This document shows, one piece after another, positions 5,336 through 26,348 of a stretch of DNA of 28,198 nucleotides. The notes beneath the pieces were generated by a model. That model did not search any database. It was not told the DNA's origin and saw only the letters and a program-made list of their open reading frames with translations. The number at the start of each line of letters is the position of its first letter. The first letter of the stretch is position 1. This stretch comes from a virus. Lineage: Duplodnaviria; Caudoviricetes. Made by a program: the position numbers and the translations under genes. The DNA lies in IMG/VR virus record IMGVR_UViG_3300017777_000785, positions 1 to 28,198 of that record; one strand, given 5' to 3'.

Positions 5336-6874
5336 ATGAACCTCTTAAAAATACAAGACATGCTCAAAGGTGCGCCTGATCAAACATTAGTAGGCTATGT
5401 TCAAAACCCTAGTGGTCAAGTACCTACGTATTTAGCGTTAAGTGAATTGCAACGTAGAAAAGAAATGCGTGCTTCATACCAAGCTACTAAACCAGAAGAT
5501 AAATCAGTTGCAGAAGACTTAGTTCAAGAATCCCAACCGGGTGTTATGGGCTTACCTGCAGGACAACCTATGCAACAAGCAATGCAACCACCACCAGAAA
5601 TGCCTGCAGAACAAATGGCTCAAGGCGGTTTAGCAGAACTTAATGTGGGTGATATGTATGATGAAAACAATTATGCTAACGGCGGTATCGTTGCGTTCGC
5701 TGATGGTGGTGATGTTCAAAACTACGCTGAAGGTGGCACTTCTAGAATAGGTGATTTTTTTAGATCTAAGATGGATAAATACGACATCGATAGACAGATT
5801 AATGAGCTTATGTCTGAAAAAAATAAATACAGATTTGATTATTTAGGTTCATATACACCAGAACAACGTGCGGCGGCGGAAGCTAAAAACCAACAGATTG
5901 ATGCGCAGATTGCGGACTTACAATCTAAACGAGGCTCTACATCACAAACTGCTGCAAGTACTACACCAGGTGGATACGTATATAAACCAGGAGAAAGCGC
6001 AGTTGTTGGAGGTAATGCTCCTGTTGATAACACAGTTAAGTTTGCAGATTTACCTGTTCAACCTAAATCTAATAGTAACTTTGGCGCACCTAAATTAAAT
6101 ATTCCTGAGGCGCTTACTATAGATAAAGCTATGGAAGATCGTAAGAGAGCTATGGAACTAGCAGGTGTACCTACAGACTTTTACTCATCAGAAGCTGAAA
6201 GAAATAAAGCTGATCGTGAAGCATTAAAAGAAGATAAAGAAAAAGCAAAATACTTTGCGGTAGCAAAAGCAGGATTTAAAATGGCTTCTCAAAGACCTCA
6301 ATACGGTAAAGGACAAAGTGCTTTTGCTGATATAGCAGAAGGTGCTGAAGCAGGTCTTGAACAATATGGCAAAGATGTTAAAGATATTAAAGCTGAAGAT
6401 AGACTTCTTAAACAAGCTGATCGCAAACTTGCTGAAGCTCAATACCTACAACAACGTGGTGACGCTGAAGGTGCGATGAAAAAGATTAGTGAACGAGAAG
6501 CTCTTATACAAGACTATAATAAATTACAATACTCAGGTGGTGTTCAACTTCAAGCCGCTAAAATTGCCGCATCCAGACCTACTGATATGGGCATGTTGCT
6601 TGACGAAGCTAGAAAAGATCCTAAATATTATACTAAGAAAGATGGTAAAGCAACGTTTGATCTTTCTAAAGCGCTCGATGATATCAAAGGATATGGAAAT
6701 AAACTTGATATAGCTTCATTAAAATCACTTACTGACGAACTTAAAACTACATTTGATCCTATTAAGAAAGCAGAAATTCAAGCTAAGATTGAGGCAATCA
6801 TATCTGGTGGCGGTAGTGATGGCTCAATGAGTTCAGCAATTCCATCAGGTGTTAAGGTAACAAGAACTCAATAA
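5336..6874 (+). CDS. Internal virion (ejection) protein
   Basis: 512 aa, helical and charged, with four [MYF]AxGG motifs. AAGGA RBS; second-to-last gene of the ejection cluster. Confidence 0.55.
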   Translation: MNLLKIQDMLKGAPDQTLVGYVQNPSGQVPTYLALSELQRRKEMRASYQATKPEDKSVAEDLVQESQPGVMGLPAGQPMQQAMQPPPEMPAEQMAQGGLAELNVGDMYDENNYANGGIVAFADGGDVQNYAEGGTSRIGDFFRSKMDKYDIDRQINELMSEKNKYRFDYLGSYTPEQRAAAEAKNQQIDAQIADLQSKRGSTSQTAASTTPGGYVYKPGESAVVGGNAPVDNTVKFADLPVQPKSNSNFGAPKLNIPEALTIDKAMEDRKRAMELAGVPTDFYSSEAERNKADREALKEDKEKAKYFAVAKAGFKMASQRPQYGKGQSAFADIAEGAEAGLEQYGKDVKDIKAEDRLLKQADRKLAEAQYLQQRGDAEGAMKKISEREALIQDYNKLQYSGGVQLQAAKIAASRPTDMGMLLDEARKDPKYYTKKDGKATFDLSKALDDIKGYGNKLDIASLKSLTDELKTTFDPIKKAEIQAKIEAIISGGGSDGSMSSAIPSGVKVTRTQ

Positions 6875-6877
6875 AAA

Positions 6878-9800
6878 ATGCCTTCATACAAAATTGAAAT
6901 TCCGGGTCAAGGTTCTTTTAATGTTGACTCTCCCACGGAATTAACTGATGATCAAGCCTATCGAGCTGTTCAACAACAGTTACAAATAGAAGCTCAACCC
7001 CAAACTGCCGGTATAGGTGAAGCCCTAAAAGGTGGAACTAAACGCCTAATAGAGTCTATCCGTACTGGTATAGAAGCCCCGTTTATTGGTGGTGAAGAAG
7101 CGGCTACAAAAGGTCTTGCTCGTCAAGAAGCAATTACAGAACGCCCCGCTGCAAGTCTAGATGAAATTAAACGCATCTATGAACAAAAAGGTTTGCTCCC
7201 CGCAGCTAAAGAAGCCGTATCCCAACTCCCCGCAAGTATAGCCGAACAAGCTCCATTTATTGGTACTATGATTGGCGGTGCTAGATTAGGTTCAATGGCA
7301 GGATCTGCATTTGGTCCAGTAGGTACTGTTGTTGGTGGATTAGCAGGCGCTGCAATATCTCCATTCCTTTCTGCTGCGGGTTCTAATATTGAACGTCAAG
7401 CTCAAGAGGATTTAAAATCAGGTAAACCTATTAGTATTGATAGGACTAGAGCGTATTTAACTGCAATACCGCAAGCAGCTCTTGATGTAGGTGCTATGGA
7501 GATAGGCTTAGGTAGAGCTTTAGGTATTTCTAAAATGGGTACTGAAGCTGCAGAAAAAATGGCGACAGAGTCATTAAAAAAATCTATTGCTATAGGTATT
7601 GGTAAAACTGCGCTAGCTGAAGTTCCTACAGAAGTTATTCAACAAATGTTAGAAAGATCCCAAGCTGGACTTTCTTTAACTACTCCAGACGCAGTAAAAG
7701 AATATAAAGACACGGCATATCAAGCAGTATTATTATCTCCGTTAGGAAGCGCGGCACGTATTGTAGAACGAGGAGAAGCCAAACAAAAAGTAGAAGCGCT
7801 GGCTAATCTAGGCGCAGACCAACAACGAGCTTACGAAGAATCAATTAGAGCTGAACAAGTTGCTAAGCTTAAAAATGACGTTGAAGAAATGCAGAGACAA
7901 AAAGCAATTCAAGATGCTATTCTTCCGCCAGAACAATATAAATTATTAGCTGCCCCTAAACAAGAACCAATTGTAGCTACGTCAACAGAAGCTTTAGGCA
8001 CAGAAAAACAAATAGAAGAGTATTTAAAAACTGTTCCAGAAGATCAACAAGTTGCAGAACGCGCAAGACTTATGGGTATGGCACCACAGCCTATTCAATC
8101 AATTATTTCTGACACTACATTACAAGATTTAGGTATCGGTAAATCAGCTATAATTAGAAAAAATGGAATACTACAAAATTTAGATTTAACTAATCCAGAA
8201 AAAGCTCAAGAAGCTGTAGATATTTTAACTGCGTATAAAGATACAACAGGCGTTAATAAGAATACTAAAGCTAAAGTTGAAGAATATATTGCTAACATTC
8301 CTAATTTAATAGAGGCAGCTAAAAATGAAAGATTGGTCACCGCAGGATCTAGAGATAATCTTCAAGTATCTGGACAACCCGTATCAGGAGAAGTTTCCCC
8401 TACAGCTCAAGGAGAGCTCGGAAATGGAGTTACTGACCTTGCAGACGTTACTGGAAGACTTGAAGGACGAACAGAGGCACAGCCCGCTGCACTAGCACCT
8501 GAAACTACAGAGGTAATGAAATCCGCAGAAGAGCTTGCACCTACTACGGAAAAAAAGATTGAAGATGCTAAAGGATTAGCTAAAGAATTAGGTGGAGAAT
8601 CCGCTCAAATATTACAAGCACCTTTTGATAATCCCGGATATAACTATACTACTAAAGACGAAGTTGAAGTTACCTTTAGACCAGAGGGCAAAATATTTGA
8701 ACTAGTTCCTGGAGATGAATCTACACAAGTTGGAAGTGACGTTCATTTAGATTACATAGGAAGTAAAATAAAAAACCAAGGACTTGCAAGTAAAGAGCTA
8801 GATAGAATTATTAAAAAAGCAGACCAAAATAATTTATCACTGTCTATAGAAGTTGCAAAACAAGATGAAGAAGGCTTATCAAACGCTCAACTTAAAAAAT
8901 GGTATGAAAGAAAAGGATTTATTTTTCCTGAAGGGTATGATTCAGAAGTTGGGTATAGACCTAGATCTGATGAAGACATATCTCAATATCAACAAAAAAC
9001 AATCGCTGTTGCAGATAATAAAATTTTACCTATACAAAATCAAATTAATGGTGATCTAAGAAACAGAACTTTTTCTGAGCCCGATTCATTTTTTGGTCAT
9101 TATGGTAATGGCGATTTACTTACAGGTTATCATGCGGTACCTTCTTATGCTACTAAATTTGATGACATTTATTATTATGACGGTAAAAATAAACCTACTA
9201 AAGTTGGTAACTTAAAAACTGAATATGATTCAGCCTTAAGAAAATTGATTGTTGGTCGCATAGGAGCAAAAGAATCTCGTACTGAAAGTGCAACTACAGG
9301 GTCAACTGTAGCAGATATAATATCTGCATTAAAACAAGAATTTGGTAATATTATGTCCGGTATTAATAGAGGTCTTATTAATATTCAATCAACTACTGAA
9401 GCACCTAAAGAAATACGAGATCAAATTGGTCCTACTACAAAAGCTTTATTTTATAAAGACAAAGTCTATATCTTTAATGATAGAACAACACCTAATGAAG
9501 CTAAACGTGATTTACTACATGAACTTGGTGCGCACTATGGATTACAAGGTATGCTTGGTAAAGCTAAGTTTAAAGAAATACTACAACTTTTACGCCAAGG
9601 TAAAATTAGTAACCCTGAAATTAAAGCAGTATGGGAAAGAACGCGCAAAGTTTATCCTGATATTGCTGAGTCAAGCGATTTATATGCAGAAGAAGTTCTA
9701 GCTAGGTTATCTGAGACTGCGCCTAATAACACATTAGTACGTCGTGTCATGGGCTACATAAAACAATTCTTAACTAAGTTAGGGTTTGGTTGGAATACAG

Positions 9801-12598
9801 ATAAAATTACACCTAATGATATTAGAGACATGGTGCAACACTCTGTACGCTTAGCACTAAGAAACAAGATTAAACCAAGTGAATCTACAATTGCAAAAGA
9901 ATCTAGAGAATCACGAGAAATAGATCCCGAATACCAAGGTACAAGTATCTTTGCTCCACCAAAAGAAAAAGAAGGTGGTAATTTTAAAGAGCATGTAGAA
10001 GATTTTAAAAACTTTAAGTTTGATAAAGATACAAGAGAAGATCTATTCTTAAAAGGCAGAATTAAAGTTGCTTATTCAGGAGCAGGCGTACAAAGTAAAT
10101 TAATGGATGACTTTAATGGCGCAGTAAGTGATGCGTTGAAAGGTGTTCGTGCTGATGTATTAATGAGCCAAGCTTTAAATAGTAATATTCTAGGATCTGA
10201 ATCAGCCAAAACAGGATACGTAGATTTTGATGATCTCAATGTGGCACGTGTTATATCTAACGAAAATAATTTAGCTAACATCAATGAAGAGATTTCTAAA
10301 CTATCAAAACAAATTGGTCCTGAAAATGCTAAGCATGTAACTCAGGCTTACTTATTAGGACTACGTTATCAATATGAATTAGATGAAAATAATAGACTCG
10401 AGACACAAGCTAAAAAAGAAGAATCAGAAGGTAAGAAAGCAACAGCTGCCAAGACAAGAGAAGGTAAAACTAAAATAACAGAAGAGCAGCAAGCAGCAAT
10501 TCCAGAAGCATTAAGCTATGGGGAGAAGTATTCTGAAGTAAAACGCGTTGCGGAAATGTATAAAGTTTTCAATGATAACGATACTAACATGCTAGAAAAA
10601 GCAGGTATCTATTCTAAAGATCAAGCAGAACGCTACAGAAAAACAAGAGGCTACGTACCCCTATTTAGATTAATGGATGAAATGGAAAGATCTAATCCTG
10701 GCGCACGTCAATTTTTTAGAGGCTTTGCAGATGTAGGTCGTGAGTATGCATTTGAAGGTTCTGAAAGACAAGTACTAGATGTATTTGATAATATGTTAAC
10801 GCGTCATATGTGGGCGGTTAATGCTGCTGTTAGAAATAAAGCTAATCAACAAGTTGCTAAACAGCTTGCAGTAAGAAATGAAAACAATAAGGTAGAACTT
10901 CATGAATATATTAATCCTGAAAAAATTGATAGAATGGCTCCGGTCTTTGTCAATGGTCGACGTAAGTTTGTTGAGTATACAGATCCTAATTTTGCTATTG
11001 CTATACATGGGGCTGAGCCCGCGCTAGGTCCTATCTTAGGTATGTTTGGTACAGCAAGTAGAGCACTTCGTATCGGTGTAACTTCATTACCTCCGTTCCA
11101 AGTTTATCAAGTATTTAATGATGCAACTCGTGCAGCTATGTTATCAGGCGTTAAGAGTCCATTTAAACTTATGGCTAGAGTTATTGGAAGCTTCGGCACA
11201 ATTCTCAAAGATCAAACAAATGACCCTATCTCAATTGAAATGAGGCGATTAGGCATTAGTGGTGGCTATGGTCACACAGCGTTAGAAGTCTCTGACAAGA
11301 TGCGCCGTGATCTAAATTTAAAAACAAATACATTAATGAAGCAAGCTTTAGATAAAGCAGAGAAATTTGCAGCTGCATCTGATATGGCACAACGTAGAGC
11401 TATTTATATTCAAACTTTATTAGAATCAGGCGGTACTCAAAACCCTGACGGCTCTATATCAGGTGGCAATAAAGTATTAGCTATGCATCGTGCTATGGAT
11501 ATTATTAACTGGCAAAAGCATGGAACGTCCGGCAAGCTAAGAATTTTAGCTCAAGTCGTTCCGTTTATGAATGCATATATCCAAGGCATGGATGTTTTAA
11601 TTGGTGCTATGCGCGGAAAAGCAATTAGTGGTACAGCGAAGAAAGAAGCTCAAGCTCTATTTTTACAGACAGCTATTAAAATTGCAGCGCTATCCATGCT
11701 GTACTCAATGTTGATTGCGGATGATGAAGAGTATCAAAAATTAGATGATAGAACTAAAGTAAGATCCTTTATTATCCCTGGCGCTGGAGTTAAGATCCCT
11801 GTGTCTGCTGAAGTTGCACTGTTAACAAAAGCAATTCCAGAACTTATGTATCAGTATATTACTCGTGAGGGTACAGCAAGCCCGATGGACGCTACTAAAC
11901 TACGTAATGAACTTGGCGTAGCTCTTCTTGATGGATTGTTAGGTCCTAACTTATTACCACAAATTGCGCGTCCTACATTAGAAGCCATAACTAATTATAA
12001 CTTTTTAACTGGTAGTCCTCTCGTAGGTAGAGGGTTAGAGAATTTAAGAACCTCTGATCAGTTTACAGAGAATACTTCTGAACTTGCTAAACTTATTGGT
12101 AAGTCTGGTATTATTTCACCATTAAAAATAGATCATTTAATGAAGGGGTACGGAGGCACTGCAGTTTCAGGTGTACTTTACGGTACCGATGCAATAGCTA
12201 ATGTGTTCTACGAAGATAAATTACCTACAACTCCATTACATAAAGTTCCAAGTATCGGCTCATTCTTCTATAATCCTAATGGTAAAGATCAACTCAATGA
12301 TTACTATGACCTTAAAGACAGAGTAGCAGAAGTAGTAACTACATATAACCGACTAGTGAAGTTTGGTCATCAAAGTGAAGCATTAGAATACGCACAAGAA
12401 AATAAAGAAATGCTGTCTATCAAAACTCAAGTTAATGCTATTAATACAAACATGACTAAGCTCCGTGATTTCCGTAAAGCTGTAATTAATAGTAATATAA
12501 GTTCAGATGCGAAACGCGACCAGCTAGATAAAATTGATCTTCAGATTAATGCTATGGTTAAAAACATAGGAATGCTAAGGGTTCAAGCAGGACTTTAA
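6878..12598 (+). CDS. Large polyvalent virion/ejection protein: DNA-transfer-like N-terminus, GNAT domain, zincin metallopeptidase, LPD38-like C-terminus
   Basis: 1906 aa. Gly-zipper N-terminus (GAR.GS.AGS.FGPVGTVVGGLAG). GNAT motifs HLDYIGSKIKNQGLASKEL and LKKWYERKGF (~8740-8920). LLHELGAHYGL (9512-9544) plus a downstream AEEVLA. C-terminal VVPFMNAYIQGMD...DDEEYQKLDD...IPVSAE pattern resembling LPD38. Confidence 0.75.
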   Translation: MPSYKIEIPGQGSFNVDSPTELTDDQAYRAVQQQLQIEAQPQTAGIGEALKGGTKRLIESIRTGIEAPFIGGEEAATKGLARQEAITERPAASLDEIKRIYEQKGLLPAAKEAVSQLPASIAEQAPFIGTMIGGARLGSMAGSAFGPVGTVVGGLAGAAISPFLSAAGSNIERQAQEDLKSGKPISIDRTRAYLTAIPQAALDVGAMEIGLGRALGISKMGTEAAEKMATESLKKSIAIGIGKTALAEVPTEVIQQMLERSQAGLSLTTPDAVKEYKDTAYQAVLLSPLGSAARIVERGEAKQKVEALANLGADQQRAYEESIRAEQVAKLKNDVEEMQRQKAIQDAILPPEQYKLLAAPKQEPIVATSTEALGTEKQIEEYLKTVPEDQQVAERARLMGMAPQPIQSIISDTTLQDLGIGKSAIIRKNGILQNLDLTNPEKAQEAVDILTAYKDTTGVNKNTKAKVEEYIANIPNLIEAAKNERLVTAGSRDNLQVSGQPVSGEVSPTAQGELGNGVTDLADVTGRLEGRTEAQPAALAPETTEVMKSAEELAPTTEKKIEDAKGLAKELGGESAQILQAPFDNPGYNYTTKDEVEVTFRPEGKIFELVPGDESTQVGSDVHLDYIGSKIKNQGLASKELDRIIKKADQNNLSLSIEVAKQDEEGLSNAQLKKWYERKGFIFPEGYDSEVGYRPRSDEDISQYQQKTIAVADNKILPIQNQINGDLRNRTFSEPDSFFGHYGNGDLLTGYHAVPSYATKFDDIYYYDGKNKPTKVGNLKTEYDSALRKLIVGRIGAKESRTESATTGSTVADIISALKQEFGNIMSGINRGLINIQSTTEAPKEIRDQIGPTTKALFYKDKVYIFNDRTTPNEAKRDLLHELGAHYGLQGMLGKAKFKEILQLLRQGKISNPEIKAVWERTRKVYPDIAESSDLYAEEVLARLSETAPNNTLVRRVMGYIKQFLTKLGFGWNTDKITPNDIRDMVQHSVRLALRNKIKPSESTIAKESRESREIDPEYQGTSIFAPPKEKEGGNFKEHVEDFKNFKFDKDTREDLFLKGRIKVAYSGAGVQSKLMDDFNGAVSDALKGVRADVLMSQALNSNILGSESAKTGYVDFDDLNVARVISNENNLANINEEISKLSKQIGPENAKHVTQAYLLGLRYQYELDENNRLETQAKKEESEGKKATAAKTREGKTKITEEQQAAIPEALSYGEKYSEVKRVAEMYKVFNDNDTNMLEKAGIYSKDQAERYRKTRGYVPLFRLMDEMERSNPGARQFFRGFADVGREYAFEGSERQVLDVFDNMLTRHMWAVNAAVRNKANQQVAKQLAVRNENNKVELHEYINPEKIDRMAPVFVNGRRKFVEYTDPNFAIAIHGAEPALGPILGMFGTASRALRIGVTSLPPFQVYQVFNDATRAAMLSGVKSPFKLMARVIGSFGTILKDQTNDPISIEMRRLGISGGYGHTALEVSDKMRRDLNLKTNTLMKQALDKAEKFAAASDMAQRRAIYIQTLLESGGTQNPDGSISGGNKVLAMHRAMDIINWQKHGTSGKLRILAQVVPFMNAYIQGMDVLIGAMRGKAISGTAKKEAQALFLQTAIKIAALSMLYSMLIADDEEYQKLDDRTKVRSFIIPGAGVKIPVSAEVALLTKAIPELMYQYITREGTASPMDATKLRNELGVALLDGLLGPNLLPQIARPTLEAITNYNFLTGSPLVGRGLENLRTSDQFTENTSELAKLIGKSGIISPLKIDHLMKGYGGTAVSGVLYGTDAIANVFYEDKLPTTPLHKVPSIGSFFYNPNGKDQLNDYYDLKDRVAEVVTTYNRLVKFGHQSEALEYAQENKEMLSIKTQVNAINTNMTKLRDFRKAVINSNISSDAKRDQLDKIDLQINAMVKNIGMLRVQAGL
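8325..8495 (+). CDS. Putative overprinted small protein (56 aa) in the +1 frame inside the polyvalent protein gene
   Basis: AGAGG(8311-8315)-9 nt-ATG(8325)...TAG(8493-8495). Translation MKDWSPQDLEIIFKYLDNPYQEKFPLQLKESSEMELLTLQTLLEDLKDEQRHSPLH; the host frame is a low-complexity linker here. Confidence 0.55.
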   Translation: MKDWSPQDLEIIFKYLDNPYQEKFPLQLKESSEMELLTLQTLLEDLKDEQRHSPLH

Positions 12599-26132: not shown

Positions 26133-26348
26133 TTAATGTATTTCATCTTCTGATAATTTTGCTAATTCTTCTCTTGCATCTATCCATGCCATTGTTTCTT
26201 GCTTGCAGGCTTCTATGTCTTCAACTGATAACCGGCTAGCTATCTCGTCTGCTATCTCAACCACTTGTTGTAGCTTGTGATCGGGTGCGGTGACTGCTAA
26301 GATTAATGCATGGGTCAATGCTTGCTTGTCGTCCTTAATCATCGCCAT
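26133..26348 (-). CDS. Hypothetical helical protein (71 aa)
   Basis: AGGGG RBS; ALILAVTAP motif; in the tightly packed early region. Confidence 0.65.
   Translation of the reverse strand: MAMIKDDKQALTHALILAVTAPDHKLQQVVEIADEIASRLSVEDIEACKQETMAWIDAREELAKLSEDEIH

Follow-up and report, generated by a model that had tools for sequence, protein, structure and literature searches.

Can the linker of a giant phage protein conceal a second, separately translated gene and, if so, what might its product do? The question arises for a stretch of viral DNA of 28,198 nucleotides (hereafter, the window), a 28-kb virus record that is 44% complete. Its nearest cultured phages, judged by polymerase and primase, infect Proteobacteria (Pseudomonas and Rhizobium) and show only 23-36% identity. 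A first-pass annotation of the window had singled out an open reading frame (ORF) overprinted on a polyvalent protein gene and had interpreted the product as the immunity partner or inhibitor of enzymatic domains encoded downstream. Table 1 lists the features involved.

Table 1. Coordinates of the giant gene, the nested gene and the associated signals in the window
Feature	Position	Strand	Remarks
Giant host gene, 1906-aa polyvalent protein with LPD38	6878..12598	+	
TAA TAG closing the +1 frame four codons 5' of the nested start	8307..8312	+	
Shine-Dalgarno-like AGAGG	8311..8315	+	9-nt spacer to ATG
Linker of the host protein (aa 483-540), spanning the nested gene by read-through, weakly constrained	8324..8497	+	pN/pS 2.2
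Nested 56-aa gene	8325..8495	+	+1 frame of the giant gene; helices predicted at 6-17 and 33-52
C-terminal end of the nested gene, S-P-L-H-stop	8481..8495	+	Family tail [LVI][HQN], like a Lon C-terminal His degron; Lon recognition putative
GNAT-like insert, host aa ~590-697, lineage-specific cargo	8645..8968	+	
Zincin-like metallopeptidase region with HExxxH, host aa 809-998	9302..9871	+	
LPD38 domain of the host protein	11723..12241	+	aa 1616-1788, Pfam E=6.3e-24

The giant gene and its second frame

The giant gene lies 3' of an acetyltransferase gene and two unnamed genes. We infer that its product is the largest ejection protein, packaged in the virion and ejected, because of podovirus gene order, which we take to place the giant gene in this role, and because of a proposal made for another phage protein. 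That protein, gp47 of phi24B, contains LPD38 and has been put forward as an ejection protein (10.64898/2026.04.10.717836). The giant protein belongs with the phage polyvalent proteins that combine MPTase and LPD38 domains, for the peptidases of which the HEXXXH variant has been described; in the main text of that paper, the word 'overlap' is absent, and 'nested' and 'reading frame' are used for other matters (PMC5512222). Residues H73, E74, H78 and E131 of the metallopeptidase region, for which Pfam gave no match of a peptidase type, are invariant in 23 aligned rows, in agreement with the MPTase motif. The GNAT label that the first-pass annotation had given to the insert is weak, the Pfam match to Acetyltransf_10 (E=0.2) falling below the cut-off. 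A second insert, without a Pfam match, lies between this GNAT-like domain and the peptidase (~8975-9301, host aa ~700-808). In the Pelagibacter phage HTVC010P (L085:5455-10576, KC465898.1), the giant-protein region is annotated as several short genes, possibly reflecting either a split or a sequence error.

The ORF itself is as the first-pass annotation described it: AGAGG, the spacer, ATG and TAG (8493-8495) are all present in the +1 frame, the translation is exactly the one quoted there, and the peptide is acidic, with a net charge of -6. The overlapping segment of the giant protein, by comparison, is G/S/P-rich only to a modest degree (26% vs 18% in the whole protein, a share reached by 8% of windows of the same length). 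The Shine-Dalgarno (SD) pairing of the nested gene in the window is moderate, at -5.8 kcal/mol, with values of -5.9 to -6.4 for the neighboring genes, and 4.7% of the 106 other +1 ATG or GTG codons have an equally strong SD. The +1 frame of the window also holds two longer open stretches, of 122 and 69 codons. When the giant gene was recoded synonymously, 51 of 1000 recodings created, at some place in the gene, a +1 ORF with an SD and a length of 56 aa or more; only 2 of 1000 did so at the site of the nested gene. By itself, the window makes an only suggestive, marginal case for a nested gene; it is the comparison with relatives that is decisive for the reality of this gene.

The nested gene among relatives

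A host-first scan, based on an alignment of the host protein, confirmed 543 stretches, the best 77 of which were analyzed; these 77 loci show 28-98% identity to the host protein in the best segment. A hidden Markov model (HMM) that was built iteratively, starting with the peptide, and run on 1672 alternative-frame segments converged on 52 segments, namely the window and 51 of the best 77 loci, all of them in the +1 frame and with E-values of 4e-13 or better. The 26 loci without a match include 19 that are cut at the 5' end, one of which (L057) contains a cut family member, and 7 that are full-length; the nested ORF is present in 45 of the 52 full-length giant genes among the best 77 of the 543 stretches, a few of these loci being duplicates. 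Its site is the end of the N-terminal module, 5' of the variable cargo. Peptide-first scans, which used sub-alignments of the peptide, yielded 117 loci on contigs partly shared with the host-first set; at 116 of these, a long ORF encloses the peptide in its +1 frame, and the remaining one, truncated where its contig ends, has an open host frame. All 104 distinct peptides have an SD and a start codon, the start being picked by the best SD. Thus, as the first-pass annotation had anticipated for a real gene, the ORF lies nested in the +1 frame in relatives, with the start, stop and SD conserved. Furthermore, the peptide profile matches 424 gene-called clusters (at 50% identity) among 1.84 billion representatives; of the 20 clusters that were looked up, not one has an informative name, and short contigs are the source of many.

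Known families gave little. Comparison of 40 members with Pfam, PHROGs and NCBIfam produced no match of note (the best, DUF6794, with E=2.6e-4 in 2 members), and no PHROGs family matched any of the 40 at E below 0.01. There was no convincing match among PDB sequences (best E=0.11), no match of note in the ESM Atlas and none in a word-indexed search with a single peptide as the query, and the sole match in a scan of genome contigs (L206) turned out to be false. No family member was found in cultured phages by tblastn, by blastn or with a broad HMM run on stretches of 10 phage records, and no description of genes nested in polyvalent or ejection genes was found among the papers that searches of the open-licence literature listed. 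On one 526-bp contig (P0184), the family domain stands behind a helix-turn-helix-like segment; this fusion is possibly a chimera, and only its family part was found in viral contigs. At several loci (P0020, P0027-P0032, P0035, P0036, L199, L201 and L202), the host segment around the nested start is present as a short tandem duplication, and the SD and ATG in use sit on the downstream copy.

Across 16 disjoint pairs, pN/pS is 0.24 in the nested frame and, for these same bases read in the host frame, 2.2, compared with 0.22 for the last 600 host codons; because these values come from simple counting, which is biased in overlaps, it is the contrast that counts and not the absolute values. In a host-guided alignment, 56/28/16% of the changes in the overlap fall on host codon positions 1/2/3, compared with 25/21/54% in the 60 codons 5' of it, and position-1 changes outnumber position-3 changes in 16 of 16 pairs. 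The expectation of the first-pass annotation that the second frame is under selection is therefore borne out: judged by these patterns, the nested gene is the constrained frame, and the giant gene reads through the overlap. The initiation signal points the same way. The median SD pairing is -8.5 kcal/mol at the nested starts (n=46) vs -1.5 at 5492 other +1 starts, and even when the best start was chosen in each of 177 other +1 ORFs, the pairing was weaker (median -3.3); the folding of the start region of the nested gene is weaker as well. We did not find internal promoters above chance (5 vs 6.4 expected) or a drop in synonymous changes upstream of the nested gene.

Two readings in which there would be no separate gene have to be weighed against this evidence. 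A shadow ORF, generated by the codon usage of the host linker, would be in keeping with the marginal statistics of the window, but such an ORF would hardly invert the selection in the overlap. In only 1 of 46 loci just before the nested gene, and in 1 of 46 just after it, does the +1 frame stay open for a stretch of equal length; the +2 frame is open in 0 of 46, and free-standing copies, with the other frames closed, also exist; we regard a shadow as exceedingly unlikely. Hardly more credible is an alternative C-terminus of the host protein reached by +1 frameshifting. The +1 frame is indeed open for 0 to 127 codons 5' of the start, depending on the locus, and a run of A precedes the ATG in the window; however, an SD and a start codon accompany every distinct peptide, some members have zero open codons upstream, and the free-standing copies have an SD of their own. 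Enclosed completely by another gene that is read in a different frame, with its start and stop kept and under purifying selection, the ORF at 8325-8495 is almost certainly a real gene by the measure of sequence comparison. Its translation as a separate product is very probable as well.

The nested gene is also gained or lost as a cassette. The host proteins of loci L069 and L080 are 93.5% identical over 2100 columns, and in L080 the SD-to-stop segment of L069 is replaced by an unrelated Pro/Glu-rich linker; a decayed remnant of the nested gene in L080 is ruled out by this clean replacement. Because such a near-identical pair differs by replacement of the cassette, the cassette looks accessory. 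Two free-standing copies are located 17 and 34 nt 3' of the giant-gene stop, and in one record (G001, 100% complete) the free-standing copy is the sole one. The 7 records without a nested copy, which are 26-75% complete, gave no match elsewhere in the record. In a tree built by a quick method from 106 rows and 60 columns and rooted at the midpoint, both free-standing copies fall among the nested ones, a placement that does not give the order of change.

The peptide and its possible partners

AlphaFold2 predicts two helices with a mean pLDDT of 88, so the product would be a small helical hairpin, soluble-looking and acidic. The conserved columns are hydrophobic helix positions and Pro25, followed by E49, S53, L55 and H56; the window copy departs from the family at the Trp/Leu positions 4, 31 and 36. 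A Foldseek search of viral structures with the peptide model gave no match at E<=0.001, and the best fold match, VIA (Z 5.0, rmsd 3.2, 51 aligned), is to a common helical arrangement.

The tail is shared across the family: [LVI][HQN] closes each of the 104 distinct peptides, 81 of which end in [LVI]H and 23 in Q or N, compared with 4.3% and 1.3% of 5457 shadow +1 segments that end in [LVI][HQN] and [LVI]H, respectively. Among the host-first members, 49 of 52 end in His; profile searches favor His-ending matches, and these members score far above the threshold. Over the penultimate tail residue, the host frame encodes many different residues, so the tail is not dictated by the host frame; at the terminal position, where the host frame has Leu in 43 of 45, this is less clear. 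The tail of the window copy, -PLH, has the terminal His after L/I/V and departs from the strict x-[L/I]-[L/I/V]-H motif by the Pro at -3; only 4 of the 104 peptides conform to the strict motif, position -3 being mostly Q, T or P. Elsewhere in the window, a 71-aa ORF among small minus-strand genes (26133-26348, minus strand) also ends in Ile-His.

The interpretation of the first-pass annotation, in which the peptide is the cognate immunity protein of the GNAT-like insert, has adjacency in its favor in the window alone. The insert is present in 1 of 120 host proteins and 1 of 78 host translations, or in 3 of 195 when the peptide-first loci, many with cut hosts, are added (the window, what appears to be its own record, and L199), and locus L004 has a peptide 98% identical to that of the window and no insert; this pairing is largely refuted, and we consider it the least probable reading of all. 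The annotation had also named the peptidase as a possible target. In its general form, this would be an inhibitor of the zinc metallopeptidase that caps the zinc with its terminal His or carboxylate until it is itself removed by Lon. All 52 hosts with a nested ORF have, by pattern, HExxH (27) or HExxxH (25), the giant gene beside a free-standing copy has HExxH, and autoproteolysis by these domains has been proposed (PMC5512222). Against this, among the 42 pairs whose peptides are at least 80% identical, 17 differ in motif type; in these 17 pairs, which form three independent groups, peptides 82-97% identical accompany peptidase regions only 6-23% identical. Switching of the peptidase type under near-identical peptides is not the behavior of cognate immunity, which makes a cognate inhibitor unlikely. 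Similarly, the window and L004, with peptides 98% identical, have peptidases 37% identical, and 7 full-length hosts have the peptidase or an HExxH motif and no nested ORF, so that even a general inhibitor appears improbable. The predicted complex of the peptide with the metallopeptidase and zinc scored 0.00 in two runs, a score that is no evidence either way.

The reading we prefer, with a probability of about 0.35 for the mechanism as a whole, is a late-made decoy for the host protease Lon. Translation of the nested gene would start from a ribosome-binding site of its own within the late mRNA, the hairpin product would bind Lon through the conserved C-terminal L-H tail, and the Lon-bound peptide would compete as a decoy, so that the giant ejection protein made alongside it is shielded while virions assemble. 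A group of Lon degrons ends in His, the preferred terminal residue; -VTLH and -FTVH degrons work, and those ending in -TLH, -TVH and -SLH depart from the strict motif too (PMC11986505). Through a tail that ends in His, LarA binds Lon and activates it (PMC10665427). We lean towards recognition of the tail by Lon, as a candidate only, and assign about half of this likelihood to Lon engagement being the purpose of the tail and not a timer. A host target would fit because the nested gene is independent of the cargo, of the C-terminal module (LPD38 or LPD39) and of exact position, and is dispensable. The giant protein would presumably be Lon-sensitive; the literature searched yielded no report on this point. 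Several considerations run counter to a decoy. The tail may only set the half-life of the peptide, given that ~4% of bacterial proteins share such tails (PMC11986505). A degraded substrate, unlike the undegraded PinA of T4, would be a poor inhibitor. Moreover, the strict motif is rare, 23 of the 104 peptides end in Q or N, and even the nearest cultured phages show only 23-36% identity. The free-standing copies adjoin the giant gene, which fits a direct partnership equally well.

Such a partnership, almost as probable as the Lon decoy, would make the product an accessory chaperone or regulator with a conserved binding partner, be it a scaffold region of the giant protein, a further ejection protein or some host factor other than Lon; the His tail would only shorten the life of the product, with Lon thus timing its action. 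The gene is always within or directly 3' of the giant gene, its nested site at the end of the N-terminal module is fixed, and conserved hydrophobic positions are many for a 56-aa hairpin. Against this, only 66 of the 117 peptide-first hosts yielded the upstream domain, which also went undetected in the giant gene of L208, the C-terminal modules differ (among 18 peptide-first hosts scanned, LPD38 in 3 and LPD39 in 11, some of them weak), and L080 does without the cassette in a nearly identical host.

In its broadest form, which we consider doubtful, the Lon-decoy model would make the 424 clusters an undescribed phage family of Lon decoys, a movable SD-to-stop cassette in ejection-gene linkers and the counterpart of comS in srfAB; every late mRNA for unfolded cargo would also encode its protease shield, and the family would be one member of a hidden gene layer in polyvalent linkers. 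Other SD-led +1 ORFs were observed in giant genes of cultured phages. Aeromonas phage phiARM81mr (L083:2762-2956, KT898134.1, host aa 434) has an unannotated 64-aa +1 ORF in a giant LPD38-type gene, with an SD of -10.1 kcal/mol and a terminal His, which can be tested because the phage is cultured; it was rejected as a family member (hhalign probability 0.3%). Vibrio phage VvAW1 (L086, JQ801337.1) has three such ORFs, at host aa ~291, ~359 and ~545; one, with a terminal His, is similar by eye to the phiARM81mr ORF, and one of 109 aa looks like a folded protein and has no Pfam match. Vibrio phage 1.232.O (L082, MG592596.1) has one of 131 aa at host aa 985, matched by the family HMM at E=0.027, a match that a broader HMM did not recover. 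ORFs of 68-69 aa are found in Synechococcus phage MinM2 (L084, host aa 738) and Achromobacter phage CF418P1 (L087, host aa 1204).

The nested family is widespread in uncultured, aquatic-type podophage contigs, with most copies missed by annotation. It shows that behind some 'low-complexity linkers' of polyvalent proteins there stands a real gene, of which the linker is the read-through shadow; this alters the way in which such linkers should be read. The nested, free-standing and absent states of the cassette form a natural series for the study of overlap formation. Should the tail prove to be a functional ligand of Lon, the peptide would be a new small Lon modulator and would offer insight into the protection of very large virion cargo from host proteolysis.

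Comparison with known systems

Embedded genes are a known kind of arrangement, and the nested 56-aa family is without a match in the libraries and folds searched. In phage lambda, Rz1 is nested in the +1 frame of Rz. The Rz/Rz1 spanins resemble the present case as a same-strand embedded phage gene; they differ in being two interacting membrane proteins, both constrained, whereas in the window the product is acidic and looks soluble, and constraint on the host frame is almost absent (PMC6139136). With the His degrons of Lon and with LarA, the family shares a chain end in which a helix leads into a short unstructured tail and a bulky hydrophobic residue precedes the final His (PMC11986505, PMC10665427). 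It differs from them in the rarity of the strict motif (4/104) and in the Q or N ends (23/104), and its degradation is putative.

Among phage proteins aimed at Lon, T4 PinA and T7 gp4.5 are encoded by stand-alone genes. Lon does not degrade PinA, and the likeness of the nested family to the two proteins lies in the proposed target, the libraries giving no convincing match (PMC8835725, PMC10286901). A close parallel in organization is comS of Bacillus subtilis, a gene inside srfAB: in both cases, a small protein is encoded in a separate frame of a giant gene, and ComS competes for an AAA+ protease system, MecA/ClpCP (PMC12915044). ComS is chromosomally encoded and its action on MecA/ClpCP was shown experimentally, whereas the window holds a phage late gene with a Lon-type tail, for which the decoy role is proposed from sequence.
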